64,000 nt of DNA, taken from positions 5,248,001 through 5,312,000 of the forward strand of contig OZ242029.1 in NCBI GenBank assembly GCA_965205015.1. Reading direction: 5' to 3'. A program made the position numbers and the translations under genes. The first letter of the stretch is position 1, and every line of letters begins with the position of its first letter. The stretch comes from Candidatus Poribacteria bacterium (lineage in GTDB: Bacteria > Poribacteria > WGA-4E > WGA-3G). Shown piece after piece: positions 6,036 to 59,932 of this stretch. Under the pieces are notes generated by a model that made no database searches, had not been told where the DNA came from, and worked only from the letters and a program-made list of their open reading frames with translations.

Positions 6036-6836
6036 TTACGGCTTGGTATCGGTATTGACGGGCGGTTCGTCGTTGTTCAAGAACCGTTCAATCGTGTTTA
6101 TCGTTGCTGGGCTTGTGCGGAAATCGGCAACCCACGGTTCACGGAAATATGCCTGCTTGTCACGCGGGAGCGCGGAGATTACTTCGGGAGGCGTCTTCAA
6201 CCGATGCCAGTGCGTCGCGAGGTGTGCGTAGGCGTTTAGCACTGCGACGCGCGGCGCGTCTCTTTGCCACACGGGACCCGCATGACATAGGTTCTCGGTA
6301 AAGAAGATCGCACTGCCTGCTGGACAGTCATACGACATCAGGAACGGACTCCGTTTCCCTGCCTCTAATGACATGTGATCTGCATGCATCGGGAAGTTAG
6401 ACTTATGGCTGCCCGCGATGAAGTGTGTCGCCCCGTCCTTTTTGGTGACATCTGTGAGTTCAAAGACGACGCGCACCATGCCTGCGTGAATCCGTCCATT
6501 ATTGAAGCGGTACCCGAAAATAGGATCCCCTTGTTGCGGTCCACCCCCGTGGAGCCCACCGTGTTCCTGTCCTTTTTCACGCCAGACGGAGGAACAGTTC
6601 TCTAATCGAACGTCAGGTCCGATGATTTCGTGCAAGACATCGAGCACCTTCGGGTGATCGATGAGGACACTCGCCGGACCGCCCGGCACGGCGCGCTGTT
6701 CTGGTGGTAAAGACTCTGGATTGTGATGTATCCGTTCAATCTGCTCAACGATTGCATCGACTTCGTCGCGTTCAAGGATCGCGGGACGGACGAGAAATCC
6801 GCTCAAGTCGAATCGAAATTTTTCTTCGTCAGTCAT
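6036..6836 (-). CDS. PhyH-family Fe(II)/2-oxoglutarate oxygenase (HxG variant)
   Basis: FDLSGFLV start, DGATHFIAGSHKSN, AGSAIFFTENLCHAG; first ligand motif reads LHGG. Confidence 0.8.
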   Translation of the reverse strand: MTDEEKFRFDLSGFLVRPAILERDEVDAIVEQIERIHHNPESLPPEQRAVPGGPASVLIDHPKVLDVLHEIIGPDVRLENCSSVWREKGQEHGGLHGGGPQQGDPIFGYRFNNGRIHAGMVRVVFELTDVTKKDGATHFIAGSHKSNFPMHADHMSLEAGKRSPFLMSYDCPAGSAIFFTENLCHAGPVWQRDAPRVAVLNAYAHLATHWHRLKTPPEVISALPRDKQAYFREPWVADFRTSPATINTIERFLNNDEPPVNTDTKP

Positions 6837-6937
6837 TGGTTTGTATTTCCCTCCTTAATTCTTTTGGAGTAAGGGATTATATCGTATTTCCATTTCACTA
6901 CAAACATCTTTGGAAGTCACAGAATTTTAGAATCTCT

Positions 6938-7453
6938 CTACCCTTTCAAAACTAAGGCAAGATTCCTTGGTTCGCCACATTTACGTCTCTTAATGGCAGC
7001 GTTTCTATTAAGGAAACGAACTTTAGCACGTTCGAGTTCGCGGAGTTCAAATCTGTCGATGCGTTTACCGTGGAACAGAGTAGGAACGCATGTGACTTCG
7101 AGCGTGCTGAGTGCCGCCTCCACCTCTTTGGGTAATTTTCCAAATAGTTCTGTGACGAAGTCAGCGCCGCTTTGCAGCTGGCCGGCTACTGTTGATGTTT
7201 TAAAAGTCCCACTTTTGAGTTCTATGAGGACAACAGCCAAATTCCTTTGAGAAGCATCCCCACAGAAGACGATATAATCACATCGTTTCGTGTCTATCTT
7301 ACGTTGTTCAAACTCACATTCAAGATTTACGATAACCCGGTCAGATGGAATATCCGTCAAATAGACTCGACATCCATCTCCACTACAGGATTTGCTAATG
7401 CATTCTTCATTTACCTGCTTCCCAATTGCTGCAAGAAGCTCTCTTAATCCCAC
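6938..7453 (-). CDS. Hypothetical protein, PD-(D/E)XK nuclease-like, downstream of AAA ATPase
   Basis: KRCDYIVF...VLIELKSG motif; starts 6 nt after the ATPase stop. Confidence 0.55.
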   Translation of the reverse strand: MGLRELLAAIGKQVNEECISKSCSGDGCRVYLTDIPSDRVIVNLECEFEQRKIDTKRCDYIVFCGDASQRNLAVVLIELKSGTFKTSTVAGQLQSGADFVTELFGKLPKEVEAALSTLEVTCVPTLFHGKRIDRFELRELERAKVRFLNRNAAIKRRKCGEPRNLALVLKG

Positions 7454-31231: not shown

Positions 31232-32152
31232 TTAGGAAAGCGGTACCGCGTAATCATCTGGGTTGTCCTTTCGCCAGTTCGGGAGATAGCCTTCTTTGTG
31301 TCCAAAGCCGTAGGAGGGTCCGATCTGATTGATGCTCGACCAGGGCCACGCTTGCCCACCGATGAGACGAAATTCATCACTTTTGCCGCAGAGCCAATAA
31401 AACATGTGTGCCACGTATCTCGCCACGCCGTGTCCACCGTATTCGGCAGTCTGGGGATCAAATTCCGATTCTACCTTCCAATCCCGTGTCGGTGGAACCG
31501 TCCGCCAGTAGCTGTATTTTAGCATGTGGCGCAACCCTTCTGCTGTGGACTCACCGCGCCGATGGAGGATGCTTTGCGAGTGAATAACGAAAGAACCCGC
31601 CGGACCTTCGCTCGAAACACCTTTCTCGGCGATATCTCGACTTGTGGATCGGATGTGTGAACCGGGCAGAATCTCTGTCGGACCCAATTCCGACGGTGTA
31701 TCCTGCGGGAAATAAAAGACCTCCACGAAATTGGTTTCGGGGCCAAAGACATGATCGGCATCGTGGTGCCATCCCTGTGCAGGCATCGGACACTCAACAC
31801 GATGGTTGCTGACCAACACCGGCAACCCGACATTCTTGCCGAGCAATGCGCGTAGTGCGCCAGCGAGTTCACGATTCAGCAGGACATGCTCAATATACCA
31901 ATCCTCAAGCAGAATCGAGCTGGGTTCATGCGTATCCCGCATCCGTTCTAAATCGGCGTGTGTCAGTCCATCGGGCATAAAACACGGATTTATCGGCAAA
32001 TCACCGTTGAGATAATCACACGTCCGCTGATTAATTTCGTCAGGAACCACCCCTTGAAGTTGCAGGTAGCCATCCCGACAGTATTGTAGCACCTGTGTAT
32101 CGGTGAGCGTCGGTTCACAATCAAAGGTTCGGTTTACTGTGTCGTGTTTCAT
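31232..32152 (-). CDS. PhyH-family dioxygenase
   Basis: RDGYLQL, WHHD (HxD), GPTEILPGSH, ILHRR. Confidence 0.85.
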   Translation of the reverse strand: MKHDTVNRTFDCEPTLTDTQVLQYCRDGYLQLQGVVPDEINQRTCDYLNGDLPINPCFMPDGLTHADLERMRDTHEPSSILLEDWYIEHVLLNRELAGALRALLGKNVGLPVLVSNHRVECPMPAQGWHHDADHVFGPETNFVEVFYFPQDTPSELGPTEILPGSHIRSTSRDIAEKGVSSEGPAGSFVIHSQSILHRRGESTAEGLRHMLKYSYWRTVPPTRDWKVESEFDPQTAEYGGHGVARYVAHMFYWLCGKSDEFRLIGGQAWPWSSINQIGPSYGFGHKEGYLPNWRKDNPDDYAVPLS

Positions 32153-32172
32153 TTTTAATTCCCTCACACTTC

Positions 32173-32593: not shown

Positions 32594-33403
32594 TTACGTC
32601 AGTGTCACGGTATTCTGTTTTACGAGGTCCTTTATTTCCCATTCTGAACCGTAAGCCGCCAACGCCTTCGTCTCGGGAGAGAGTCTCTCCATCACTTCTG
32701 GTGGAAAGGCTTCTCGGACCCCGCGCTCGTCTTGAAAGAACTGCGTCTTGTATCGCAGAATTAGGAATCTCCGATCGCGATCTGTCGGTTTCCACACCAG
32801 CACACCGTGTGTCAACATTTCAGTGATGATTACAACGTCCCCTGCTTTTGGGGTTACGTTGACGAGTGCCGGATGGAGCGGGGCATCTGGCGTGTCGGGT
32901 TCGGGGAAAAATAGATTCTCAGGACGCGCAAACTCACGCTTATGGGAACCCGGCAAAACTACCAAACCGCCGTCCCCCGGATAGACATCCGTGAAATAGA
33001 AGAAAGCCACGACATCGTTTGTGAAGATCTGATCGTCTCTAACGCCATACCGTCGGGTCCACCGAAAACCTTCACCGGCACAATGGAGCGGTGTCATTTC
33101 CTGTCGCTCGTGCGTATTCACAACAAGTGATCCACGATTGAAACGCGGTTTGTTCCACGTCAGTTCTTTGATGATCGGCCACGTAACAGGATGTAGTGTG
33201 AGTGCCTCAAGCGATTTGTCTGCCGAAAATCCGTTTGAAAAACCTTCACCACCCCTGCTAATTCCGGACGGCAATTCATCTGGTGCCGCCTGCACAAGCC
33301 GTTCGATTGTTGCCTGTGCATTGCTCAGTTCTTCTGACGTCAGGACGTTCTCTAAATGTAGGTAACCACGTAGGTCAAAGAGATATTTCTGTTTCGGAGT
33401 CAT
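32594..33403 (-). CDS. PhyH-family Fe(II)/2OG oxygenase (HxA variant)
   Basis: FDLRGYL, GDGGLVVLPGSHK, AGDVVIITEMLTHG; first ligand motif LHCA. Confidence 0.8.
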   Translation of the reverse strand: MTPKQKYLFDLRGYLHLENVLTSEELSNAQATIERLVQAAPDELPSGISRGGEGFSNGFSADKSLEALTLHPVTWPIIKELTWNKPRFNRGSLVVNTHERQEMTPLHCAGEGFRWTRRYGVRDDQIFTNDVVAFFYFTDVYPGDGGLVVLPGSHKREFARPENLFFPEPDTPDAPLHPALVNVTPKAGDVVIITEMLTHGVLVWKPTDRDRRFLILRYKTQFFQDERGVREAFPPEVMERLSPETKALAAYGSEWEIKDLVKQNTVTLT

Positions 33404-42945: not shown

Positions 42946-43668
42946 ATGGCAGACCTCAAAAATGAGCTCCAGAAACTGCAACAGAATGGCTTCGTTTTGA
43001 TAGAGGGTGCGTTGTCACCAGAGGAGACAGAGCGTATCCGTCAGCGAATCAATTATGCGCGGGAACAGGGGTGGGAGGAAGGCTTAAACGCCGTCGGCAA
43101 TATGTGGTTCGATACCCTCCTGGATCGGGAACCCGATACATACCAGCCGCTTGTCGGGCATTCGAGTGTCCGTCCCTATCTTGAGGGCTTGATGGGCAAA
43201 CAGTGCCAACTGCGAAGCCTACGCGCACACATAAATCCAGGTCCCTATCTCCAAGAATGGCACATGGATTTTTACGGCTATTGGCAGGAACAGCGGTATG
43301 TTGCGGAACATCCGTTTGCGATGGCACCCGTCGGGATTAACACCACCTTCTACTTCCAAGACAACGATCCGGGTGAGGGACACCTCAAGTTTATCAAAGG
43401 CGGTCATCTGTCAGAGCCGCCACACCTCTATCCGTTGGATCGTCCTAAATTCGAGGCGTGGTGTGATGCACAAGAACATGTTATCCTGCATCCGAAAGCG
43501 GGAGATTGTGTCGTATTTATCAATCACATCCCGCATCAAGGCGCAAAAGAGCGGGACGATATGGAGCGGAGCAATGTTGTGTGTCATTATCAGGTAACAC
43601 CGATGTATGAAGGCGTTTGGCATGTCTCGCGTCCGCGCGGGTATCAAGGTACATTTCCGTTCGCTTAG
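42946..43668 (+). CDS. PhyH-family dioxygenase
   Basis: QNGFVLIEGAL, WHMD (HxD), FIKGGH, AGDCVVF...PHQG. Confidence 0.85.
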   Translation: MADLKNELQKLQQNGFVLIEGALSPEETERIRQRINYAREQGWEEGLNAVGNMWFDTLLDREPDTYQPLVGHSSVRPYLEGLMGKQCQLRSLRAHINPGPYLQEWHMDFYGYWQEQRYVAEHPFAMAPVGINTTFYFQDNDPGEGHLKFIKGGHLSEPPHLYPLDRPKFEAWCDAQEHVILHPKAGDCVVFINHIPHQGAKERDDMERSNVVCHYQVTPMYEGVWHVSRPRGYQGTFPFA

Positions 43669-44834: not shown

Positions 44835-46778
44835 ATGAGCAAAGTCATTGGAATTGATTTAGGTACGACAAATTCATGTGTGGCTGTTTTAGAGAGCGGT
44901 GATGCCAAGGTGATTGAAAACACCGAAGGAAATCGAACCACCCCCTCGATTGTTGGTTTCACCAGTGATGGGGAGCGTCCCGTCGGACAGGTCGCAAAAA
45001 GACAAGCCATCACGAACCCACAAAATACAATCTTTTCGATTAAAAGGTTCATGGGACGGAAATATAACGAGATTGGTGACGATGCCACCCGTGTGTCTTA
45101 TGAATTAAAAGCAGATAAAGGTGGCGATGTCGCTGTAAATATTGAGGGCAAGGATTATTCGCCGCCTGAAATCTCCGCTATGGTTTTGCGGAAGATGAAA
45201 GAGACTGCCGAGGCATACCTCGGAGAGCAGGTCACGAAAGCGGTTATTACCGTTCCCGCCTACTTCAACGATTCCCAACGTCAGGCGACAGCCGATGCTG
45301 GTAAAATCGCAGGGTTAGAGGTCGATCGGATTATCAATGAACCGACCGCTGCATCTCTCGCTTACGGGTTACAAAGTGAAGGCGATAAAAAAATCGCCGT
45401 CTATGACCTCGGCGGCGGCACGTTTGATATCTCTATCCTGGAAATCGGGGATGGCGTGTTCGAGGTGAAAAGTACCAACGGGGATACACACCTCGGGGGT
45501 GACGATTTTGATCAGGCGGTTATTGACTGGATGGCACAAGAATTCCTCAGTAGCCAAGGGATCGATCTCCGTAGCGATCCGATGGCATTGCAACGGCTGA
45601 AGGAGGCGGCGGAAACCGCGAAGTGCGAACTTTCCAGCACGCAACAAGCTGATATTAATCTGCCTTTTATTACCAGCGATGCCAGCGGACCGAAGCACCT
45701 TAACTTGACGCTCACTCGCCCAAAACTGGAGCAGATTACGGATAGTCTCGTTCAACGATCGCTCAACCCCTGTCGACAGGCGCTTGCGGACGCTGAAATG
45801 AAACCCTCTGATATCGATGAGGTTATCCTCGTCGGTGGACAGACACGCATGCCTAAGGTTCAGGAAGCCGTCCAACAACTCTTCGGTAAAGAACCACACA
45901 AGGGAGTCAACCCGGATGAAGTCGTCGCAATCGGGGCGGCTATTCAAGGGGGTGTGCTTGCTGGGGACGAAGAGGTCAAAGATATTCTTTTGTTGGATGT
46001 CACGCCACTCTCACTCGGGGTTGAGACACTCGGCGGAATGTTCACACGGTTGATTGACAGGAATACCACAATCCCTACGAAGAAATCGAATATATTCACA
46101 ACGCCTGAGAACAATCAGACCTCGGTTGATGTGCATGTCCTCCAAGGCGAACGGGAGCAGGCGGTTTACAACAAGACCATCGGACGCTTCCGCCTGAGCG
46201 AATTGCCGCCAGCGCCGAGAGGGATTCCACAGATTGAAGTGACATTTGATATTGACGCAAACGGCATCCTCAACGTGTCTGCGAAGGATACCGCAACCGG
46301 TAAAGAGCAGAAGATTACCATTACCGCCTCTTCCGGGCTTAGCGATGCCGAGATCGATCAGATGGTGAAAGATGCCGAAACGCACGCTGAAGAGGATAAG
46401 CAGAAACGGGAGGAAGTTGAGGCTCGCAACCGTGCGGATTCTATGGTCTATGAGACTGAGAAGAACCTCAACGAGTTCGGGGACAAGGTCGATGATGCTT
46501 CCAAGGAGAAAGTCAACGCTGCTGTCGCCCGTGTCAAGCAAGCATTAGAAGCCGACAACCACGCTGAGATCCAATCCACGACAGAGGCACTAACGCAGGT
46601 CTGGCATGAGGTCTCTGCCCAGATGTATCAGCAGACAGCCGATGCAGCCGATATCGGGGTAGACCTAGGCGCTGCTGTAGGAGATCCAGGAGTTACTGAA
46701 GCACCGCCTGACCCCGCGGAAGGTGAAGTCGTTGACGCTGAATATGAGGTCGTTGACGAGGACGAGAAGAAAAAGTAA
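44835..46778 (+). CDS. dnaK: Chaperone DnaK
   Basis: [43 protein letters not shown]. Confidence 0.98.
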
Positions 46779-46815
46779 GGGGCACCGGCGCGCTGCCATA
46801 CGGGAGGTTCCATCG

Positions 46816-47421
46816 ATGGCGTATAGCGACTTCACCTTAGAATCGGTAGTGCCAACGTTTCAACTGGAGAAGGTTGACGCCGTGGGGCTCTTTTCTGAAA
46901 TAGAGCCAGTGACACCGAGTGCGTACCTCACAACGGGATTGAAGAGGAAGGCACCGTTAGCCACCGCTATCGGCACGGAGAAAGCACGCTCAGAGATGAT
47001 TGTCGCCGATGTGCTCGTTGAACTCCTTGAACACTTGGATCGCAGCATCAGTTTGTTTTCTGGGATTGATTTCAGCGTTGATGTTGAAAACGGCTTGACC
47101 GGGGTGTGCGATTTTTTAGTGAGTCTATCGCCAAACCAATTTTATTTAGAGGCACCTGCCATTATTCTTGTGGAGGCGAAAAATACTGATGTGAAATTGG
47201 GACTTGGGCAGTGTGTCGCTGAGATGCTCGCTGCCCAACGCTTTAATGCCGACAGGGGTAACGACATCCGGTGTATTTATGGGGCTTCTACCACAGGAAT
47301 AGATTGGCTGTTTCTCAAGTTGGAGGGAAAATGTCTGCACATTGATATGATCACCTATCAACTCGCGCAGTGCGACAAAGTCCTTGGCATCCTTTCCAGT
47401 ATGGTCGCGCAGAAAGCATGA
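46816..47421 (+). CDS. Hypothetical PD-(D/E)XK-like protein, tandem copy 1
   Basis: MAYSDFTL...TEKARSE...GVCDFL...LVEAK...GQCVAEMLAAQ; GGAGG RBS. Confidence 0.7.
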   Translation: MAYSDFTLESVVPTFQLEKVDAVGLFSEIEPVTPSAYLTTGLKRKAPLATAIGTEKARSEMIVADVLVELLEHLDRSISLFSGIDFSVDVENGLTGVCDFLVSLSPNQFYLEAPAIILVEAKNTDVKLGLGQCVAEMLAAQRFNADRGNDIRCIYGASTTGIDWLFLKLEGKCLHIDMITYQLAQCDKVLGILSSMVAQKA

Positions 47422-47452
47422 AGGGCAAAATAGGGGACAGGAGGGAACAGAT

Positions 47453-48058
47453 ATGGCTTATAGCGATTTTACGTTGGAAGCAGTCGTAACAACGTTTCAA
47501 CTGGAAATTGTTGAATCCGCGGCACTCTTTGCTGAAATAGAAGCGATAGTTCCAAGCTCCTATCTCACAGAAGTCCTAACGAAAAAGGTTCAGTTAGCTA
47601 CTGCAATAGGGACAGAGAAGGCAAAATCGGAACTGATTGTTGCTGATATTCTGTTTGAACTCCGTGAGCAATTCAATCAGCGGATCAGTTTTTTTTCGGG
47701 GATAGAGTTCAGTGTTGATGAGGAAAACGGATTGACAGGCGTATGCGATTTTTTGGTGAGTCTTTCACCGATTCAGCATTTGTTACAGGCACCTGTCATC
47801 GTCCTTGTTGAGGCGAAGAAGGATGACCTGAAACTGGGTATGGGACAGTGTGTCGCCGAGATGCTCGCCGCCCAACGTTTTAATGCTGAAAGAGGGAATG
47901 ATATCCCTTGCGTTTATGGGGCTTCTACGACAGGAGTCGATTGGCTGTTCCTCAAGTTGGAGGGAAAATGCCTGCACATTGATATGGTAACCTACGCGAT
48001 TGAACGGTGCGACAGAATCCTTGGTATCCTCTCCAGTATGGTCGCACAGAAGGCGTAA
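47453..48058 (+). CDS. Hypothetical PD-(D/E)XK-like protein, tandem copy 2
   Basis: Same length (606 nt) and motifs as copy 1; both end SSMVAQKA. Confidence 0.7.
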   Translation: MAYSDFTLEAVVTTFQLEIVESAALFAEIEAIVPSSYLTEVLTKKVQLATAIGTEKAKSELIVADILFELREQFNQRISFFSGIEFSVDEENGLTGVCDFLVSLSPIQHLLQAPVIVLVEAKKDDLKLGMGQCVAEMLAAQRFNAERGNDIPCVYGASTTGVDWLFLKLEGKCLHIDMVTYAIERCDRILGILSSMVAQKA

Positions 48059-50862: not shown

Positions 50863-51909
50863 CATACGCTTGAGGTGGCTGCTGACCCGCAAAGCCTTTC
50901 TTTACTTCATCAGTTCAACGGTGTTTATGTTCAAGACAGCACCTGGATATCGCTCCCCGATGACCTCCATGAGATTTCCAAAGGTCCCCCGAAAAAGAAT
51001 CATCCGCAGAAAGCCGCTTTGAAACTTCATTTGCGCTTTGATGTGTTGACGGGAGGTTCCAAGACTTCCAACTCACCAATGGCATGGCTGCTGATAGCAC
51101 AACCGAAAAGGCAGCCGATCCCCTTCCACAGGGAAGTTTATACCTCGCAGACTTGGCATATTTTTCCCTCGATACGTTTGAGAAACTCACTGAGAACGGC
51201 ATCTACTGGGTTTCTCGCTTGAAAGCCAACTCGTATCTCGCTGATGAAAACGGCGAATACCTCCCTTTAGAGAAGATGCTCAAGGAGACCGAAGCAGAAA
51301 ACACCTTCATTCGCAAACGCATCCGTATCGGCAGAACAAAGCAACTTCCGGTGTATCTCATCGCCCAAAGACTTTCACAAGCAGAAGCGAGTCAACGCCG
51401 ACGCTCCATCCGATACCGTGCCAAACACAAAGCCCAAACCCCCTCAAAAACGCTCTTGCGCCTCGCGGGATACATACCAATATCAAAGCACATTGACTTA
51501 CCTCGAAACAGCTGGTCCGTCAGCGTCGGCATCCGATGGCAGATTGAGTTGATGTTTAAGGGATTCAAAAATAGCGGAAAACTGACTGTCTCCCGGAGTC
51601 AGAAACCCTATCGGATCCTCTGCGAAATCTATGCCAAACTCATTGCGATCCTGATTCAACACATCGTCATGTTAGCCGCAGGATACCGACACATACACCA
51701 CAGTTTCATCAAGACCGCAAAATACATTACCGGCTACGCGAGATTGCTAACGGTGAGTTTTCATCACTCAAAAACCCAACGCCTTGAAACCTTGAAGGAC
51801 ATAAAACGATCCTTTGAAAACGGCGGGGGTTTCCAGAGAAGCCCTGGAAAAAATACAACCCTTAGACGATTCCAAGAGGCAATGGAAAATCTCTAAATTG
51901 ACACTTATG
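50863..51909 (+). mobile_element. IS4-family element remnant: 5'-truncated, frameshifted DDE transposase
   Basis: VQDSTWI, KLHL, LADLAYF, VSRLK and RWQIELMFK split over frames (50875..51222, 51084..51896); right end TTGACACTTATG resembles an IS4-type TIR. Confidence 0.8.
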
Positions 51910-52154: not shown

Positions 52155-52427
52155 GTGGTTAAACGGGAAAATTGCACATATGACTATAGTTGCCGTATTC
52201 ACTTTTTTCAGATTATGCACGTTTTCTGCCGAAAACAGAAGTCTTTAAGAAATAGTTAAATATGCTTAATGCCAAAAAATTTTGAACACCCATAGGAACG
52301 ATCCTAGATATTCGGTTCTCTTAGAGGATATTTTTCCCGCCTCTATTCTTTCCTTCTTCTAACCTTCCCTCCGTTCTGACTGTTTTTCCCATAATTTTTG
52401 AAAAAATTGGCAATTTTTCCTGTTTTT

Positions 52428-52455
52428 TGAACCTTTTGGCAATAATGTGTCCTCT
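52428..52455 (+). promoter_or_regulatory. ECF-sigma-type promoter, probably autoregulatory
   Basis: TGAACCTTTT-N14-CTCT, 30 nt before the ECF gene; same motif on the minus strand at 63365-63392. Confidence 0.55.
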
Positions 52456-52484
52456 ATGCCCGAATCCAAATCGGTTATTGCTTA

Positions 52485-53048
52485 ATGGAGAACGATATAG
52501 TAACAACAGGTTTAATTTGGCAGCTTCAATCGGGGGATGATAAACCTCTCAGTGAGTTGATGAAACACTACAATCCGCATATATGGCCGTTAATTCTGTC
52601 GGAATCTCGGAACTATCAAGATGCTGAGGATATACTCAGTAGAACCTGGGTTTCGGTTTGGGAGAATATCAACGGCTTGCGGGATGTAGGCAATTTCAGC
52701 GGATGGCTGCGGAAAATCGCTTATAACCAATGTAGGCGATATTACAACAACGCATACCATTCACAAGGCGAACGTCCTTACGAAGATGAGGCGTTGGCGT
52801 GGCATGTCAATAGCAGTACTGAGATTCTCCTTCGTGAAGAAGAATTGAAAGCAGATGCTATTGAAGCAGTGCTACATCTACCGAGCAAGCCTGGACATAC
52901 CCGAGAAGTTGCTATATTGTTTTATCTTCACGACATGCCGCTGAAGGAGATTGCGGAAGAACTTGAGTTGCCACTCGGCACAGTCAAGCGCAAACTTCAT
53001 GAGGCACGCGGATTTCTCCGTAAGGAGTTCTGCGTGGAGTCTGAGTGA
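52485..53048 (+). CDS. ECF RNA polymerase sigma factor
   Basis: DAEDI, FSGWLRKIAYNQC (region 2), EIAEELELPLGTVKRKLHEAR (region 4). Confidence 0.9.
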   Translation: MENDIVTTGLIWQLQSGDDKPLSELMKHYNPHIWPLILSESRNYQDAEDILSRTWVSVWENINGLRDVGNFSGWLRKIAYNQCRRYYNNAYHSQGERPYEDEALAWHVNSSTEILLREEELKADAIEAVLHLPSKPGHTREVAILFYLHDMPLKEIAEELELPLGTVKRKLHEARGFLRKEFCVESE

Positions 53049-53233
53049 AAGGACGATAACTTGGTTGGGTTGTGTTTTAGTTATACTTGGTGCTTTCGGC
53101 CAAGTAGCGTAATTGTTGTTTATGAGCTGCTTTTTCTGAAAGACCTTGCTTTAAAGTAAGAAAAAGTGACAGTCCATTTTCAACAATATATATTTCACAC
53201 TGAATCCCTTCAAGGGACAAAGAGGAGAAGTTT

Positions 53234-53503
53234 ATGTTAGTGTCTTGTCTTAGAAACAAAATGGTTACAAAATCTGTTGCAATGGTTCTTGTAGTAATGT
53301 TTTCGCTTGTTTTCTATACAGGCTCAACACCAGAGGCGGAGGCACAAGAAGTTTACGCAGAGGCGAATCAGGATGGCTGGAAAGTCGGTATCAAAGTTGA
53401 CTTGTTAAAACTCTACGATCGGATATTCGGTGACAGCAGTAGCAATAACAACAGTAGTTGTAGTTGTGGCTGTGGTAGCAGCAATAGTAGCTGTAGTTGC
53501 TAA
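53234..53503 (+). CDS. Secreted small peptide with Asn/Ser tract and Cys-rich tail (precursor 1)
   Basis: GAGGAG RBS; signal peptide ending AEA; C-terminus GDSSSNNNSSCSCGCGSSNSSCSC*. Confidence 0.8.
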   Translation: MLVSCLRNKMVTKSVAMVLVVMFSLVFYTGSTPEAEAQEVYAEANQDGWKVGIKVDLLKLYDRIFGDSSSNNNSSCSCGCGSSNSSCSC

Positions 53504-53722
53504 CCCTTTTCCTAGTGCTCTGTCCATCTTGAAATTGTAAATAAATCCGTTCGTAGTCTTGTGATTCATTGCACGTCACAAGGTACAATGCATTGTGCTA
53601 CTATGAACAGACCTCAATTTGAAAAATGGATAAAGCACTAAGTTACAAACCTATTTCCCCGTTTCGCTTCCACATATCCTGTGGTGGTGAAATGGGGCAT
53701 CGGCTCTAAAGGAGATTATAGC

Positions 53723-54670
53723 ATGAAGTCACGTGAATGGTTATCGCCACGCACTGTATCAATTATTGGTATTTTAGTGGTCCTTCTTATGATTGGCCTC
53801 TATTTCTACGTGCGACATGATGTACAAAAATTTGAAGCGAGTTTGCCAAAGATTTTACCAACAACACAATCTGTTAATAGGCTTGGCCACGGGCCATTGA
53901 CAGAGAATGTTATTCCTAAACTAGATGAGGTAGTTTTCGCTGAAAAACCTGTGCAAGCTGTCCCTGTGACAAGCGGTGAATTGATAGTAGTTTCCCAAAA
54001 TGAGGAATCTGTCGCGGGAGCAGAACCCGGGTGTAGCATGTCTGGGGATATGATGGACTCTAAACATGAAGAAGACGATGAACCAGAAGTTTACGCAGGA
54101 ATGACGAATGAAGAAGTACGAGAACTCATTGCTGAACTTCAGACATCTTATGATATCACGAATGCAGATGAGAAGTTTGACTTATTAGGAGAGGCACTCC
54201 TCGCAAAAATAGGGCCCGACCCGAGAATCCCGCGCGTGATTAGCAATTTTAAAGCTCTCCACGCACTTGATAAACAAGTAAAAAGGATGAATGCAGCAGG
54301 GAAAGACAATCAAGCGGAAATTGACGTTTTTCTCAATCAGTTACCGGCTGTTGTCGCAAGTGATTTAGTAGAACTCTCTATTGGCTTGCTTAGTCCAAGC
54401 GAAGAAGAGTCGGCTGCCCTGCGTAAACAGGTTAAACAAATCACATCATATGTGGATAATCTTACGCTTCTTCGCGAGACTACTCCCTTGATTAAGGATG
54501 CTATTTCCACAGGAGATATTACCCCCGAAGAAGGGAAAGTGTTTCTAGAATCCGTGTCTGGTATAAACGTTACCGTGCACGCCTTGCCTCGCTCGGGAAC
54601 CCCGGTAGACGACACCATAAGGCCCCTGGAAACATCCGAACCTGCGGTAAAAGAGATTCCTGAATACTAG
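53723..54670 (+). CDS. Membrane-anchored acidic extracytoplasmic protein
   Basis: AGGAG RBS, N-terminal TM helix IIGILVVLLMIGLYFYV, acidic linker, helical C-terminal domain. Confidence 0.7.
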   Translation: MKSREWLSPRTVSIIGILVVLLMIGLYFYVRHDVQKFEASLPKILPTTQSVNRLGHGPLTENVIPKLDEVVFAEKPVQAVPVTSGELIVVSQNEESVAGAEPGCSMSGDMMDSKHEEDDEPEVYAGMTNEEVRELIAELQTSYDITNADEKFDLLGEALLAKIGPDPRIPRVISNFKALHALDKQVKRMNAAGKDNQAEIDVFLNQLPAVVASDLVELSIGLLSPSEEESAALRKQVKQITSYVDNLTLLRETTPLIKDAISTGDITPEEGKVFLESVSGINVTVHALPRSGTPVDDTIRPLETSEPAVKEIPEY

Positions 54671-54696
54671 TAGTCTGTCACGTCTAAACTGAGAGG

Positions 54697-54760
54697 CAGT
54701 TCGTAGTAGCGCAATTCATTGCGCTATGGATGAGGCGATGAATCGCCTCACTACGAACTG
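54697..54760. repeat. REP/MITE-like palindromic element
   Basis: CAGTTCGTAGT...ACTACGAACTG termini with internal hairpins AGCGCAATTCATTGCGCT and TGAGGCGATGAATCGCCTCA. Confidence 0.65.
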
Positions 54761-54774
54761 GGGTTACCCTTCAT

Positions 54775-54963
54775 TTGAAAGTTGACAAAGCACTAGACGC
54801 AGGAGATATATCCTCTGAAGAAGCCGAATCATTCTTAGAACGCCTATCGGGTCTAAACATTACAGGGGCAGGACCTGACCAGACACAAAGAAGGGAAGAA
54901 TCTGCAACACCCGATGTAATTAAACCAAACGTCTCTGAGATTCCTGAATACGAGACTTTTTGA
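54775..54963 (+). pseudogene. C-terminal remnant paralogous to 53723..54670
   Basis: ALDAGDISSEEAESFLERLSGLNIT...EIPEY vs AISTGDITPEEGKVFLESVSGINVT...EIPEY. Confidence 0.7.
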
Positions 54964-54978
54964 GATGAGGATTTACTT

Positions 54979-55392
54979 ATGAGAATCCTTCAGGTACTAA
55001 AACTCACAAGAATCTGTTTAGTGCTTTTTAGCATCAACTTGCCACTCGTCGCAACAACACTCCCTCAAAAAATGAGTGAATCAGATGTTAAAGTATTTTT
55101 GGATATGGGCTTCCAAGGGTTTGAGGAACTTACACACAGCCAGGGGTTCCAAGATTGGCATTATGCCGAAGCCAAAATTCCTATTAGATTGGCGAACTGT
55201 GCCGACTGTGCCCCTTATATTACTATCTTTCGCGAAAGATCCACAAATGGCAGACCTACCGTAGGCGCCAGGGGGTCATGGTCGACTTTATGGAAAATGC
55301 CAAAAATCGTGATAGGTTATGCCAAAATCCTATCTCAACGAGGCAGGATACTTCTACACAGTGGGGTCCAAAAACTTTTTTCGTGGTGGTAA
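54979..55392 (+). CDS. Putative secreted hypothetical protein (possibly truncated)
   Basis: GAGG RBS, signal-like N-terminus, CxxC (CADC). Confidence 0.45.
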   Translation: MRILQVLKLTRICLVLFSINLPLVATTLPQKMSESDVKVFLDMGFQGFEELTHSQGFQDWHYAEAKIPIRLANCADCAPYITIFRERSTNGRPTVGARGSWSTLWKMPKIVIGYAKILSQRGRILLHSGVQKLFSWW

Positions 55393-55558
55393 TTTTTTGT
55401 AAAATCAAAAACATTCCTCCAGGGGTTATAGTAAAGCTCGAAAATATATGAGCATAAGAACTCTGAAAAAACCTTCCTCCCCACTGGCGAGGTGAGGAAA
55501 CTTCACTACCCCGAGTGTATAGATAATTATGTGCTTCATTATAAAAGAGCGAAAATCA

Positions 55559-55865
55559 ATGTTTTTATATTCGCTCAGAAAAAGAAAGATTGCGATACCT
55601 ATGGTAATTCTTCTTATAGCAATTTTCCTATTAAGCTTATATACAATCTGGACAGACTCAATATCAGAAGCAGCAGCCAATGGCAATAACGATAATCTCT
55701 TTATTCGCTCCCCTCTGCCGAGATAGACTTGAGAGATGTTTTAGTTATCGAGGCGTGATTCTTTGGGTAATGGATAGAATTACAGACGATAACTCCAATA
55801 ACAACAGTTCCGGTAACAGTGAATGCGACTGTGGGTGTACCGACAGCGGTAGTTGTTTTTGTTAA
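55559..55865 (+). pseudogene. Second Cys-tail peptide (precursor 2), broken by two apparent single-base deletions
   Basis: Signal peptide MFLYSLRKRK...SEAAA in one frame, EIDLRDVLVI in the next, GVILWVMDRITDDNSNNNSSGNSECDCGCTDSGSCFC* in the third. Confidence 0.7.
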
Positions 55866-55886
55866 ATTCGTAAATGGTGCTAGTCT

Positions 55887-58238
55887 ATGGTTAAAAGGCT
55901 TACAAGTAGCCTTCTCATTATCAGTATCTTGTTCCTCGCCTTCTGGCTGCGTACTCAGGGTACGAGCCGTATTCCCGATGGACAGTTTACCGGATACGAT
56001 CCCTATCTCTATTATTGGCAGGCACAGATCATCTCCGAATACGGGTATCTACCCGAACGCGATATGCACCGCTGGCTACCCCTCGGTAGAGATTTAAGAC
56101 AAACCCTAAATCTCTATTCTTATGTCCTTGCTTACACCCATAAAGCAATTTCTCTGTGCTATCCAAACGTCTCACTATATCAGATTTCTGTTTATGCACC
56201 ACCTATCTGTTTTATTACCGGGCTCGGTGCCCTTTGCCTCTTCCTGTACCACACTTATGGATGTCTCTTTTCAAGTTGTGTTGGCGTGTTGCTCGCAACT
56301 TTTCCTGGCACTATCGGGCGCAGTTCTGCTGGTTTTGGAGACAGGGACTCTTGGTGTTTTCTACTTGCTGTTCTTGCCATCACAACCTATCTTGTTTCTT
56401 TACAAGCGCGCAACCCACGCAAACGAATGTTATGGACGCTTGTCAGTGGCGGCATCGTTTTTCTCGGGGGCATCAGCTGGGAGGCTTTCGGATTTTTTGT
56501 TGGAATGATAGTTGCTATGGAACTCTGGAAGTTCTGCACCACTGTGAGGGAACAGCATATAAAAGAATACGCCTTGTGGGTGTTTATGTTTGTGCCAGGG
56601 CTCTATCTTGCCAGTCCCGCGTACCGAAACGGCTATGGGTTCGCCACACACATTACTGCCTTGATGCTCTTCCCACCGCTTGTTATCTTCGTGCTCCGCA
56701 GTGTTAGATTTCTGCTTCTTGATTTCTCAGAACAGTTCCGGCCGTATGCACGCCATCTTGCATGGTTCTTAACGCTTAGCAGCATCGCAATAGGCATCTG
56801 TTACATTGTTATAAATCTTGACAACTTCGCCCACACTGCCTATCAGTTTCAAGAAAACCGCTTGATGCGAAGCATCAGCGAACTGGCTAGCCCGCTTTTT
56901 GGTTATTGGACAGAACGTTATGGGAGTTTCTTTATTTTAGGCAGCCTTGGACTTATTGTTGAAAGCCTCCGGGTATGGAAATGGAAAGCCATCCCTTTGG
57001 GGGTATCCCTTATTCTCTTTTTTGGAACGACCTTCTTTCGATGGCCCATCAGCCAGTGGATTGGTACTGATATGTGCAATACACTCTTTTTTGCTTCGCT
57101 TGCACTCGTTCCTACCGGACTTGGTATTGCAAGTCTCCGAAAAGGAAATTCCGCCGCAGAATTCATAACGCTCCTCGCTATCCTGTGGGCACTTTTGTGG
57201 ATCGGCCTTGCCCGCAGTGGAAAACGGTTTGACTTCTTTATCGGTATCCCTCTTGCTTGCGGCACAGCCTTTCTCTTATGGTACTGTCCCATACAGTTTA
57301 TACAAAAACTTAAGGCAGCCAAAAGATTGCCAGAGTATTTCAGGCAACCTTGGATTGTCGCGTGCGTAACAATCGCTATATTCATTCCTATGCTCTTTTG
57401 GACACCACTCGGAGGCCACGCCGCGCGCGCCCTGAAAGGAGCAAAGGACGTTCGAAGACCTATTCCAGGACGAGGGGAGATGCTAGAGACGTTTCAGTGG
57501 ATGAAAGCTACACTTCCACCAAACACCATTATGGCTGCCCACTGGAGTTACGGCAGTCAACTCAATATTTTCGGCGATGTTAAAACTGTCATTGACCAGG
57601 ATCATTATATACCACACTGGATACACCTCTATTACCGACACGTCTTCTGTGCTCAGTCCGAGCGCGAGGCGCTCTCTTTTTTGAAAACTCATGGTGCAAC
57701 ACACCTTATGTTAACACAGGAAGAGGTTATTAAGTTACCTCGGAGCCTTTCCTTTATAGGTAGTGACAAAAACGCAGATCGCCGCTTCGGATTCACCAAA
57801 CTGCATCGCGACAGAAAAACTTCAACTGAAACGCTTACAAGACTAATGCCGCGACGCGGTACCCCTTTGGAATCCGTTGAGGTTGTTAATATCGCGCCTG
57901 AAAAGCGATTCGTGACTGTCCAGTTCAAAACACAAGACACGGTGTCCAAAGAGGTCGTCTGGAACGCTAATAAACCCTCAGCAATAAAACTCGGAACAAG
58001 TGGTGTGGTTCTCTACTTTGATTTTGAAGGCAAACCTTACATCGGGTACTATATCCCATCAATTGGGTGGAACAGTTTCGCTGTTAAACTGTTCATACGT
58101 GGCGAGCATAGTACAGCCTTTATACCTGTTTATCCTGTTAATAAAGATAGCCTTGCAAAACTTAAAGTGTGGAGAATTTACTATCCACCTGATATAAATC
58201 CAGATCCTAAATACCTCGCAACTGATCCTGAACGGTGA
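55887..58238 (+). CDS. STT3/AglB/PglB-like oligosaccharyltransferase (GT-C fold)
   Basis: Many TM helices; GYDPY, GFGDRD (DxD), SISE (TIXE/SVSE), KRF, then soluble domain AHWSYGSQL...VIDQ (WWDYG variant). Confidence 0.82.
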   Translation: MVKRLTSSLLIISILFLAFWLRTQGTSRIPDGQFTGYDPYLYYWQAQIISEYGYLPERDMHRWLPLGRDLRQTLNLYSYVLAYTHKAISLCYPNVSLYQISVYAPPICFITGLGALCLFLYHTYGCLFSSCVGVLLATFPGTIGRSSAGFGDRDSWCFLLAVLAITTYLVSLQARNPRKRMLWTLVSGGIVFLGGISWEAFGFFVGMIVAMELWKFCTTVREQHIKEYALWVFMFVPGLYLASPAYRNGYGFATHITALMLFPPLVIFVLRSVRFLLLDFSEQFRPYARHLAWFLTLSSIAIGICYIVINLDNFAHTAYQFQENRLMRSISELASPLFGYWTERYGSFFILGSLGLIVESLRVWKWKAIPLGVSLILFFGTTFFRWPISQWIGTDMCNTLFFASLALVPTGLGIASLRKGNSAAEFITLLAILWALLWIGLARSGKRFDFFIGIPLACGTAFLLWYCPIQFIQKLKAAKRLPEYFRQPWIVACVTIAIFIPMLFWTPLGGHAARALKGAKDVRRPIPGRGEMLETFQWMKATLPPNTIMAAHWSYGSQLNIFGDVKTVIDQDHYIPHWIHLYYRHVFCAQSEREALSFLKTHGATHLMLTQEEVIKLPRSLSFIGSDKNADRRFGFTKLHRDRKTSTETLTRLMPRRGTPLESVEVVNIAPEKRFVTVQFKTQDTVSKEVVWNANKPSAIKLGTSGVVLYFDFEGKPYIGYYIPSIGWNSFAVKLFIRGEHSTAFIPVYPVNKDSLAKLKVWRIYYPPDINPDPKYLATDPER

Positions 58239-58294: not shown

Positions 58295-58855
58295 ATGATA
58301 GCAAACGCAATAACGCTCTTAAGGCTTCTTTTAACCTTTGTTGTAATTATATTACTCCATTTAAACTACTATATCAGTATAGGACTAATGGCAATGATCG
58401 GTGGTATTTTCACACTTGATGGTGTTGACGGTATCATTGCCCGTAAATGCAACCAAGCAACAAAGTTCGGAGCAATCTTTGATACTGTAGCAGATAGAAT
58501 CATTGAGAATACTTTCTGGATTTACTTTGCAGTGAACGGACTAATCCCTTTATGGATGCCGATCACTGTCCTAACTCGTGGATTTTTGATAGACAGTTTG
58601 CAGCACTATACTAAGCTATCAAAAAGCGACTGGGCACATGCCCTTACTCGCTCCCGCACAAGCCGTGCACTTTATGGTATAGCCAAAATGAGTACCTTTC
58701 TTTTGCTTGCAAGTGTCTGCGTTTTCAAACCTGAAAATTCCACTATAGAACTAATAAGTGTAATACTTCCTACTGCTACTATCGGTTTTTGTCTCATTCG
58801 GGGGGTGCCACTATTCATAGAAGCTTGCAAAACTTTCACTGTTAACCTGAATTAA
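58295..58855 (+). CDS. CDP-alcohol phosphatidyltransferase (PgsA-like)
   Basis: ANAITLLR; DGVDGIIARKCNQATKFGAIFDTVAD matches DxxDGxxAR...GxxxDxxxD. Confidence 0.9.
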   Translation: MIANAITLLRLLLTFVVIILLHLNYYISIGLMAMIGGIFTLDGVDGIIARKCNQATKFGAIFDTVADRIIENTFWIYFAVNGLIPLWMPITVLTRGFLIDSLQHYTKLSKSDWAHALTRSRTSRALYGIAKMSTFLLLASVCVFKPENSTIELISVILPTATIGFCLIRGVPLFIEACKTFTVNLN

Positions 58856-58897: not shown

Positions 58898-59932
58898 TTG
58901 AAAAGTTGCATAGCACTCTTAATAAGTATTCTGCTTGTATTCCCTTTCCCGTCCCTCACTTATGGAGACACATCCAAGCAGTCGCGGCCCGACAACCTCG
59001 TACCTATTGGTATAATGGGTGACCATGGACACAAAAAAAGTGAGATAATGCTCTTATACCGGTTCATGGCAATAAACATGCAGGGTTTACAATCTGACAC
59101 AACTCCGCTTGAGAAGGAGGATGTTCTCAAAGATTTTATGATAGCACCTGTACAGATGAGCATGCAGATGCACATGCTCGAGACAATGTTCGCACCGCAC
59201 AACCGTATCACTCTCATGGCAATGGCAAACTACCAACATAATGCTATGCAAATGGAAGGTGCGCACCAGCATGCACACGGTGGACATGAACACCCCGTAG
59301 TTCCTCATGAAATGTCAAGTGCAGGCATTGGTGATGTAAAATTAGAGGGCGTCCTCACACTTTGGGAAATGCCTCACCTGACACTCCTTGCAAACGTCGG
59401 TGTTTCATTCCCAACCGATTCCATTACGCAAAAAGGAGATAATGAGGAACTTCTACCTTATTCTATGCAACTTGGCAATGGTTCTTTTGAAGCTCGCCCT
59501 GGCATTACACTCTTTGGGTTTCACAACTTTTGGTCCTATGGTGGACAACTTCGAGGCACATTTCCATTGAATACCAATGCGGGAGGGTGGCGGTACGGAA
59601 AAACCTTTGATGTTACCGCATGGGGGGCGCGCCGTATCAACAATTGGATCAGCCTTGGTAGTAGGTTGCTCTTGTCAGCACGAGGAAACATCACCGGCAG
59701 CCACCCCGATTTGAATCCATATATGAGTCCGAGTCACCGTCCTGACTATAGTGGTGCTACCTTGCTTAATTTCGCTGTTTCTGGCAACGTCATCGTTCCA
59801 ACAGGTACCTTCATAGGGCAAAGACTCGCCATTGAGTTTCAGATACCCCTTTATCAGAGTTTCACTGGAATTCAACTCAAAACAACATGGCAGCTCACTG
59901 CCAGTTGGCAATACGCCTTCAAAGTTTTGTAA
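58898..59932 (+). CDS. Outer-membrane beta-barrel transporter-like protein with His/Met-rich loops
   Basis: Signal peptide, PIGIMGDHGHKK, QMSMQMHM, HQHAHGGHEH, GIGD, MQLGNG, aromatic terminal strand WQYAF. Confidence 0.7.
   Translation: MKSCIALLISILLVFPFPSLTYGDTSKQSRPDNLVPIGIMGDHGHKKSEIMLLYRFMAINMQGLQSDTTPLEKEDVLKDFMIAPVQMSMQMHMLETMFAPHNRITLMAMANYQHNAMQMEGAHQHAHGGHEHPVVPHEMSSAGIGDVKLEGVLTLWEMPHLTLLANVGVSFPTDSITQKGDNEELLPYSMQLGNGSFEARPGITLFGFHNFWSYGGQLRGTFPLNTNAGGWRYGKTFDVTAWGARRINNWISLGSRLLLSARGNITGSHPDLNPYMSPSHRPDYSGATLLNFAVSGNVIVPTGTFIGQRLAIEFQIPLYQSFTGIQLKTTWQLTASWQYAFKVL

Follow-up and report, generated by a model that had tools for sequence, protein, structure and literature searches.

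The closest described systems to the gene considered here are small cysteine-rich peptides and the exported acceptors of oligosaccharyltransferases. Glycocins such as sublancin and glycocin F carry five Cys residues, four of which form disulfides and one of which is S-glycosylated, in one instance at the C-terminal residue. They have double-glycine leaders, two helices with nested C-x6-C disulfides, a SunS-type family 2 glycosyltransferase (GT2) and a peptidase-ABC exporter. The metallothioneins most useful for comparison are the short C-x-C-rich copper types of fungi and the bacterial proteins SmtA and MymT, which are cytoplasmic and carry no export signal. There are also pilin genes that sit beside the gene for their own oligosaccharyltransferase, as in the pilA-tfpO/pilO pairs of Pseudomonas. 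Bufferins are Cys peptides that are exported by Sec and serve as copper buffers, under the control of an extracytoplasmic function (ECF) sigma/anti-sigma pair (PMC11626156). Here we describe pep1, a small gene located at positions 53234..53503 on the forward strand of a 64,000-nucleotide stretch of DNA (the window, by which we mean this whole stretch) from a Candidatus Poribacteria bacterium (GenBank assembly GCA_965205015.1, contig OZ242029.1, positions 5,248,001 to 5,312,000). Within the 64-kb window, pep1 is the only intact copy of a clade-restricted family, the members of which consist of a conserved N-terminal export signal, a short and fast-evolving linker that is acidic or rich in Ser and Asn, and a C-terminal module with five Cys residues (Cys5 module). 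This C-terminal module is the conserved working part of an exported or membrane-anchored small protein, and it is very probable that these Cys5 peptides constitute a real exported family.

The pep1 coding sequence begins with ATG and encodes 89 amino acids followed by TAA, and its translation is as an earlier, sequence-only reading of this DNA had written it. A ribosome-binding site, AGGAGAA (53223..53229, + strand), is located 4 nucleotides upstream of the start codon. Farther upstream there is a sigma-70-like promoter candidate, GTGACA-17-TATATT (53166..53194, + strand), which agrees with the consensus at 10 of 12 positions. This is a consensus match only, and sites of this type are not enriched in the pep1 region, where 8 are found compared with the 6.8 expected from shuffled sequences. 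The predicted export signal (53234..53344, + strand) has an n-region with three Lys or Arg residues, 20 uncharged residues and a candidate cleavage site, AEA/Q. If the protein is cut at this site, the mature peptide has 52 amino acids and 5 Cys, and a sixth Cys lies within the signal region. The chain then includes a Ser/Asn tract, SSSNNNSS (53435..53458, + strand), and ends with the Cys5 module C-x-C-G-C-x6-C-x-C (53459..53500, + strand). The tail, CSCGCGSSNSSCSC, with its five Cys, comprises 22 residues: 11 Ser, 4 Asn, 5 Cys and 2 Gly. The N-x-S sequons NNS, NSS and NSS are found at mature positions 35, 36 and 47, two of the three being contained in the Ser/Asn tract, and their -2 residues are S, N and S, which does not correspond to the D/E-x-N-x-S/T pattern of PglB type. 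The sequence-only reading had described a mature peptide of this length in which there are five Cys as well as three N-x-S sequons lacking D or E at -2, and the letters confirm this description provided that the AEA/Q cut is used. Contigs from sequencing runs of three studies match stretches of the pep1 locus with no differences, although the run that spans the whole locus may be the source of the window itself.

Searches with pep1 alone recover almost nothing. There is no match to pep1 in Pfam or NCBIfam, a word-indexed protein search returns only the query itself, a HMMER scan of 1.84 billion representatives returns the query and two unrelated repeat proteins (E of about 8e-4), and an ESM Atlas search yields no usable match. 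When pep1 was used as a query against five genomes, one locus, L001, was found at E = 0.06 and the rest was noise (G and L numbers are labels for Poribacteria genomes and genome loci, respectively; L041 is the G137 locus). We also scanned 150 Poribacteria genomes for the DNA motif corresponding to C-x-C-G-C...C-x-C-stop, which gives 22 matches in 15 genomes compared with 24 for a reversed-pattern control. The total is no higher than the control, and thus only the four in-frame matches that are clustered within 2.9 kb of G137 were counted. Seven identical CxCGCxCHRCLC matches are frame artefacts, located in stop-to-stop segments of 34-41 residues without a start codon or signal.

Profiles A6, A7 and A8 were built from the peptide sequences of the family and revealed additional members. 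There are 14 database proteins that match profile A7 at E <= 0.01, of which one is the window's own and 13 lie beyond it, and the sole name given by the source to any database member is 'hypothetical protein'. Profile A8 gives matches in 8 of 175 Poribacteria genomes at E <= 0.001, and 7 of these are convincing. The family genomes are G001, G054, G059, G060, G090, G137, which has four copies, and G144. The A8 match in G033 and the A6 matches inside long open reading frames (ORFs) of G014, G131, G044, G034 and G150 were set aside as probably spurious. Together, the motif scan and the profile searches yield 19 distinct members. One of these, P0014, is absent from the window, and the genome from which the window is taken probably holds this additional copy elsewhere. 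The family is undescribed in the databases and literature searched, where no paper on these Poribacteria genes was found.

Exactly five Cys residues are present within the last 30 residues of 18 of the 19 members, and C-G-C is present in 17. The odd Cys count, to which the sequence-only reading had drawn attention, is the most conserved feature of the family. Homologues with conserved Cys spacing, the absence of which had been proposed as grounds for abandoning that reading, do exist. There are three tail types. Type I ends the chain with C-x-C-G-C-x5/6-C-x-C, which is invariant in the seven type I members. Type II, found in G090 and G144, has poly-Ser followed by CACGCGWIVxxCPCD. Type III, found in G059, is His-rich with five His per member and continues with C-x9-C-x-C-x3-C-x-C; P0014 belongs to this type, and the G059 peptide is the intact counterpart of the L001 copy, which is a pseudogene with an in-frame TAA immediately after the signal. 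There is also one odd member in G054. The Ser/Asn tract takes the form of a D/N/S tract in type I and of poly-Ser in type II, and it is absent in type III.

Besides the tail, the signal region is the best-conserved stretch of the family. As judged with our own script, n-, h- and c-region features of a signal can be recognised in all 19 members: each begins with positive charge (at least two Lys or Arg residues in the n-region of 18 of the 19), each has a run of 20-29 uncharged residues, and each has small-x-small sites at about positions 33-40. The proteins could be cleaved or could remain anchored in the membrane. The signal regions of pep1, its pseudogene paralogue pep2 (see below) and the L001 copy align well, and each has a tail with five Cys.

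Several observations indicate that pep1 is, as far as can be predicted from sequence, a translated gene. The sequence AGGAGAA precedes all nine intact family genes for which DNA is available, and it is degraded before both pseudogenes (pep2 and L001). Over the first 67 codons of pep1, which are non-repetitive, codon usage favours the reading frame at 0.30/0.33 per codon, compared with 0.32/0.22 for the adjacent sigma factor gene, and this frame preference is as strong as that of the flanking genes for the sigma factor and for a membrane protein, p329. The claim that pep1 is a gene for a small exported peptide is thus borne out by the family members, the ribosome-binding site and the codon usage, with export itself being predicted. 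Moreover, the Cys tail is under purifying selection. Using the Nei-Gojobori method in our own script, the dN/dS ratio between G090 and G144 is 0.33 for the whole gene; it falls to 0.17 in the first 30 codons and to 0.095 (dS 0.57) in the last 16, and the middle has 0.41. Between the G137 paralogues pepC and pepD it is 0.31 for the whole gene, 0.61 for the first 30 codons and 0.15 for the last 16, the middle being saturated in dS. Synonymous sites are also saturated between pep1 and G137 pepA, where pN in the tail is only 0.14. Although 16 codons are few, all three pairs point in the same direction.

These data bear on the possibility that pep1 is a chance ORF or a decaying gene that lies over a degenerate run of AGY-type codons and has no function. 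All 22 tail codons are indeed AGY, AAY, TGY or GGY, single-sequence searches return pep1 itself only, and two relatives are pseudogenes. However, across the 19 members the start and the stop position are conserved, as are the ribosome-binding site, the signal and the spacing of the Cys, and in relatives the same tail is written in different codons (TCC, GAA, GGG and ACC in pep2). In addition, the tail dN/dS is 0.10-0.15 and no tandem repeat is found in the pep1 tail by the program TRF. This explanation is largely refuted and we consider it highly improbable.

The sequons fare differently from the Cys residues. Three or more sequons occur in 26% of 20,000 shuffles of the 22-residue pep1 tail (P=0.26), and therefore the pep1 sequons follow from composition. 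Among the 19 members, N-x-S/T occurs after residue 35 in nine and is lacking in the other ten, so the sequon is not conserved across the family. The sequon tract noted in the sequence-only reading consequently does not hold up as a defining feature. By contrast, shuffling indicates that the Cys arrangement of the pep1 tail is beyond chance, both for the three C-x-C (P=0.02) and for the C-x-C end (P=0.04).

A second copy in the window, pep2 (55559..55865, + strand), is a frameshifted paralogue of pep1 that ends 21 nucleotides before the start of an STT3-like gene. Its signal ORF spans 55529/55559-55726, whereas the ORF for its tail (...CDCGCTDSGSCFC) uses a different frame that is open from 55635, and the two pieces match pep1 by BLASTP at E = 4e-4 for the signal and E = 0.005 for the tail. 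Compared with its intact orthologue pepD of G137, pep2 has two 1-nucleotide gaps and has lost the ribosome-binding site, and therefore it is a pseudogene in this assembly. The G137 locus is collinear with the window and carries four intact tandem paralogues in the order sigma, pepA, pepB, p317, p135, pepC, pepD and STT3-like gene, after which come genes for a CDP-alcohol phosphatidyltransferase, a barrel-like protein and an HtrA-TPR protease. Identities between the window and G137 are 45% for p329 and p317, 61% for p137 and p135, and 78% for the STT3-like proteins. Thus there is a conserved envelope cassette composed of a sigma factor, one or more peptides, a single-pass membrane protein whose linker is rich in His and acidic residues, p137, a peptide, the STT3-like protein, the CDP-alcohol phosphatidyltransferase and an outer-membrane-barrel-like protein.

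The function that we tentatively favour, by analogy with described peptides, is a periplasmic thiolate metal site, with the peptide acting as a mini-metallothionein that would work like an unmodified bufferin. The peptide would be exported by Sec and then cleaved or kept in the membrane as an anchored protein. The flexible Cys5 tail, with the addition of five His in type III, might form a thiolate ligand set for a soft metal such as Cu(I) or Zn(II), such that the peptide would be a periplasmic mini-metallothionein or a metallophore-like buffer or sensor, and the adjacent sigma factor could control its expression. In this view, the three pep1 sequons are a by-product of the Ser/Asn-rich linker. 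Our preference for this possibility is based on the number of Cys (five), on the five His that type III members carry, on neighbours rich in His or in Met and His, on the HMA gene near the L001 copy and on the bufferin precedent. The HMA domain protein (PF00403, 3.3e-11) is encoded upstream of the L001 peptide copy.

A number of points weigh against a metal-binding role. The hints of metal are all circumstantial, and they come from the neighbours rather than from the peptide. Thiols also tend to form disulfides in the oxidising periplasm. Nine members have no match at E <= 10 in Pfam, which includes metallothioneins and DUF2282, all 19 members lack a match at E <= 1 in NCBIfam, and the PDB offers no relative, its sole match being a pilin at E = 0.56. 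Of the three copies that were compared initially, two (pep2 and L001) are pseudogenes, and therefore the function is dispensable or redundant. Finally, the window sigma factor is only 27% identical to the one at the same place in G137 and the two are not orthologous. A DDE transposase gene (51084-51896; PF01609, 1.5e-11) is located just upstream of the window sigma gene, which may explain why the latter is not the orthologue of the G137 gene. Given these two observations, control of pep1 by this sigma factor is uncertain.

The sigma gene itself (52485..53048, + strand) encodes an ECF-type member of the sigma-70 family with 187 amino acids (Pfam matches Sigma70_r2 at 9.8e-10, Sigma70_r4_2 at 8.7e-10 and Sigma70_ECF at 1.3e-4). 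The sigma genes of G137 and G144 are 53% identical to each other. Each of these two (L041 4187-4867 and L046 449-1219) seems to have a second region-4-like helix-turn-helix at its C-terminus, and region 4 of the window sigma factor aligns to both segments.

A sigma gene lies directly upstream of the peptide gene in the window, in G137 (with a 17-nucleotide gap), in G090, in G144 and in G060. Perhaps, then, the peptide is a membrane-anchored regulator of this sigma factor, similar to an anti-sigma factor or a sensor, in which the Cys tail would be the periplasmic sensing element. CnrY and CnrX serve as a model for such a tiny anti-sigma and sensor element. The run of 20-29 uncharged residues is long enough for a membrane anchor, and p329, the product of the following gene, is itself helical and anchored in the membrane. 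However, only 8-14 residues precede the hydrophobic segment, which to our knowledge is too few for any known anti-sigma domain. Moreover, there is no sigma gene directly upstream of the peptide in L001, G054 or G059, the sigma factors of the window and G137 are non-orthologous as noted above, and a Foldseek search of the PDB with the p329 model gives 0 matches at E <= 0.001. On balance, we regard such regulation as very improbable.

The gene located immediately downstream of pep2 encodes a divergent STT3-like GT-C membrane protein of 783 amino acids (55887..58238, + strand). Its presence accords with the sequence-only reading, which had pointed to a nearby gene of this kind. The protein matches the NCBIfam model TIGR04154 (archaeo_STT3) over residues 10-547 at E = 4.1e-16, with 58.5 bits against a cut-off of 450, and it has no Pfam match at E <= 1. 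From these scores, it is best classified as a remote STT3 relative and not as a scored member of the family. Its only PDB match is to the C-terminal domain of yeast Stt3 over the WWDYG region, at E = 0.71 with the single sequence and E = 0.069 with a profile. When placed with the yeast Stt3 alignment, the WWDYG position reads HWSYG in the window and NWDYG, DWIHG, NWGYG, NWGYG and DWIHG in five homologues, leaving only W and G invariant among the six sequences. The residues D38, D152, D154 and E332 are invariant in the same six sequences, and they may correspond to the PglB catalytic residues (the acidic residues of the first loops and the Glu of external loop 5). An AlphaFold2 (AF2) model from a six-row alignment has a mean predicted local distance difference test score (pLDDT) of 44 and was judged useless.

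There are ten genome loci with STT3-like relatives at 45-68% identity, and all are from Candidatus Poribacteria. The closest of these is L001, where the STT3-like protein is 68% identical and a homologous peptide gene is located upstream. A metagenome scan with the STT3-like protein returns only two loci, and neither has the peptide. Matches to the STT3-like protein at E <= 1e-150 occur in 90 of the 175 Poribacteria genomes, many of which have five or more paralogues. An orthologue with 66-78% identity, however, is found in six genomes only (G137, G001, G059, G090, G144 and G054), the next best match being at 54%, and all six carry the peptide family. In G059, G090, G054 and likewise L001, the peptide gene is located 1.6-3.3 kb upstream of a 66-69% orthologue. 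In G144 the peptide and STT3-like genes are on different contigs, and in G060 the peptide gene is broken and the STT3-like matches are no more than fragments. The overlap in the six genomes may be due to membership of a single clade and not to function.

The arrangement raises the possibility that the peptide is a dedicated client of the neighbouring STT3-like enzyme, and that its linker or tail is glycosylated after export by an N-, O- or S-linkage. The Cys5 module might then be a recognition or folding knob, or the bearer of an odd modified Cys. Adjacency and co-distribution speak for this explanation, in that pep2 in the window and pepD in G137 end 21-27 nucleotides before the STT3-like start and in that the two gene families overlap in six genomes. 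Furthermore, type I and type II linkers are rich in Ser, Asn and Asp, and a GT2 gene lies directly downstream of the STT3-like gene in L001. Upstream of the STT3-like paralogues in three further loci (L057, L058 and L059), small proteins with Cys clusters, exported or anchored, are likewise encoded, an observation that is qualitative and was made without control loci.

Several findings are difficult to reconcile with a glycosylated client. Ten of the 19 members have no sequon, and the pep1 sequons are at the level expected from composition and lack D or E at -2. The WWDYG motif, which is said to read the Ser or Thr at the +2 position of the sequon, is degenerate in the six homologues. The overlap in distribution may merely mark one clade, the L001 enzyme is intact despite the stop codon in its peptide gene, and the STT3-like assignment is remote. 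We therefore regard a dedicated client as possible but doubtful. Slightly more doubtful still is an extended version in which the peptides are dedicated acceptors of an STT3-like enzyme with a degenerate WWDYG motif. They would be glycosylated Cys-knot peptides, perhaps S-linked through the fifth Cys or O-linked in the Ser tract, and would represent one instance of a wider Poribacteria design in which each of the multiplied STT3-like genes has its own small exported partner rich in Cys or His. Metal binding and service as an STT3 client are not mutually exclusive.

Another possibility is that the tail is redox-active, with C-G-C or C-x-C shuttling disulfides with a p329-type protein, with the STT3-like enzyme or with their substrates. 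Other C-x-C active sites and the thioredoxin-like subunits Ost3 and Ost6 of the eukaryotic oligosaccharyltransferase provide precedents for redox chemistry of this kind. In a preprint, a designed C-x-C peptide reportedly replaces an essential enzyme in a eukaryotic cell (10.64898/2026.01.27.701630). The occurrence of C-G-C in 17 of the 19 members is consistent with this proposal, as are CG(G/S)CGCQ tails on p329-like anchors in the same loci. MauE, which takes the place of DsbB, provides a further precedent, since its active site, sensitive to mutation, is a periplasmic C-G-C in a disordered loop (preprint 10.64898/2026.03.05.709764). However, a redox pair needs two Cys, which leaves the conservation of five unexplained, and no partner with a thioredoxin fold or quinone-binding site is recognised among the cassette proteins. 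A redox role therefore seems unlikely.

Still less likely is that the peptide is a RiPP precursor in which the N-terminal region doubles as a leader and the Cys residues are modified by an unrecognised nearby maturase such as p329, p137 or another protein. The family does have a leader-like conserved N-terminus, a variable middle, a fixed Cys framework and tandem paralogues, four of them in G137. Bufferins also establish that there are RiPPs with Sec signals (PMC11626156). However, among the window ORFs of at least 150 amino acids that were scanned, there is no maturase family, and the sole radical-SAM protein is MiaB-like and is encoded 25 kb away. The MNIO family PF05114 is absent from five of five peptide-bearing genomes, whereas it was detected in the Caulobacter vibrioides control, and MNIO is also not found among the window ORFs scanned. 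In addition, the best match of any of the 19 members to a RiPP family is at E = 0.34. The term 'precursor' used in the sequence-only reading thus receives no support in its RiPP sense.

Between pep1 and p329 there is a strongly folding intergenic stretch (53500..53725, + strand) with z = -6.6 relative to shuffles, which consists in part of pieces of dispersed repeats. Copies of its pieces 17-75 and 99-142, with 81-84% identity, are present at other places in G001, G090 and G137, and Rfam gives no match over 52300-56000. Because the pieces recur, this stretch looks like material of the repetitive extragenic palindromic (REP) type and not like a specific regulatory RNA. The equivalent spacer in L001 folds well too (z = -3.9), and it has no clear homology to the window stretch.

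The p329 gene (53723..54670, + strand) encodes a single-pass membrane protein with 315 amino acids when read from the ATG at 53723, the listed ORF beginning at a GTG at 53681. No Pfam or NCBIfam family matches this protein, and its AF2 model, which is poor with a mean pLDDT of 54, has a transmembrane helix at residues 23-53, a disordered region at 55-141 and a helical region at 143-293. In L001, L004, L006, L009 and L010, the gene before the STT3-like gene encodes a p329 relative that has a His-rich linker. Other loci with STT3-like relatives have different small exported proteins, and in most of them a single-pass membrane protein whose linker is His-rich is likewise encoded before the STT3-like gene. 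In the paralogue loci L057 (2337-2675), L058 (1496-1732 and 3747-4049) and L059 (2925-3248), the small exported or anchored proteins carry Cys clusters (such as ...GCSDCDEDD or DCDCC motifs) and are accompanied by His-rich membrane proteins. There is also a second protein type of 102-112 amino acids that has a p329-like N-terminal anchor, a short linker and the C-terminal sequence ...CG(G/S)CGCQ. Its representatives are encoded in L001 (4207-4515), L045 (878-1216, minus strand) and L046 (1883-2221), that is, in L001, G090 and G144. Thus a C-G-C tail is found on two different scaffolds.

Immediately downstream of p329, a dispersed repeat of about 125 nucleotides has been inserted (54671..54800, + strand). 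All five related genomes searched contain matches to it, 11 to 46 in each and at no more than 85% identity, and many high-depth contig ends fall within it. This is followed by p62 (54775..54963, + strand), a duplicated 3' fragment of a p329-type gene that matches the end of L001 p330 by tblastn. Positions 6760-7358 of G137 align to 54799-55389 of the window, and G137 6761-6828 also aligns to 54510-54577. The next gene, p137 (54979..55392, + strand), encodes a conserved exported protein that is the counterpart of G137 p135 and has no Pfam or NCBIfam match.

Beyond the STT3-like gene, the CDP-alcohol phosphatidyltransferase gene (58295..58855, + strand; PF01066, 3.3e-19) has counterparts downstream of STT3-like genes in G137, L010 and L003. 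It is followed by a gene (58898..59932, + strand) for a Met/His-rich protein that resembles outer-membrane barrels of the Phenol_MetA_deg type, with an Atlas feature score of 0.98. PF13557 is present in 38-50% of its Atlas cluster members, which is a lead only, and the protein has no Pfam or NCBIfam match of its own. A homologue is found at the same place in G137. Elsewhere, the window carries four genes for PhyH-type dioxygenases (6036-6836, 31232-32167, 32594-33403 and 42946-43668), two Laminin_G_3 proteins and a sulfatase, a gene content typical of sponge-symbiont Poribacteria. Two adjacent paralogous ORFs without a family match (46723-47421 and 47384-48058) share a 300-nucleotide direct repeat that is 71% identical between them.

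If these interpretations are correct, C-x-C-G-C-x5/6-C-x-C is a new and very compact C-terminal module that is strongly selected on an exported peptide. The family would also supply a tangible candidate for the partner or substrate of STT3-like proteins, which have undergone a large and unstudied expansion in sponge symbionts that are uncultured. Apart from these, most of what is known of N-glycosylation in bacteria comes from Campylobacterota and some Desulfobacterota. The locus also offers a caution for the reading of sequences, in that the eye-catching sequons are compositional, whereas the odd-looking five Cys are conserved.

Among the described systems, bufferins (BufA; DUF2282, BUF_6/12Cys) resemble this family in being small (80-120 amino acids) and in having a fixed number of conserved Cys; they reach the periplasm by means of a Sec signal, which in the family is predicted, and have a part in copper stress (PMC11626156). 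They need an MNIO enzyme (DUF692, PF05114) and a DUF2063 partner, and their Cys residues are converted to thiooxazoles; PF05114 is found in none of the five family genomes. Unlike bufferins, the family has no match to DUF2282 or BUF_6/12Cys (nine members, E <= 10), and its five Cys are clustered as C-x-C at the extreme C-terminus. MauE crosses the membrane several times, is linked to quinone and has exactly two Cys, in contrast to a peptide of 50-80 residues with five.

Like the secreted glycocins, the family consists of small, presumably exported peptides with five Cys, but it differs from them in its predicted Sec-type signal and in its Cys spacing. This spacing, C-x-C-x-C-x5/6-C-x-C, excludes the glycocin fold. 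Neither a SunS-type enzyme nor a peptidase-ABC exporter is found among the window ORFs scanned, including those at 41-64 kb, and only in L001 is the STT3-like gene followed by a plain GT2 gene. The likeness to metallothioneins resides in a short stretch rich in Cys, Ser, Gly and Asn, with repeated C-x-C and without an aromatic or hydrophobic core. The differences are the export signal, the presence of only five Cys and the lack of a match to a Pfam metallothionein at E <= 10. Compared with the acceptors of PglB and AglB, the differences are that D/E-x-N-x-S/T is absent here, that the sequons are not conserved and that the enzyme has a degenerate WWDYG motif. Nevertheless, as with these acceptors and with the pairs of pilin and oligosaccharyltransferase genes, a gene for a small exported protein with a flexible, Ser/Asn-rich C-terminal region is located beside an STT3-like gene.

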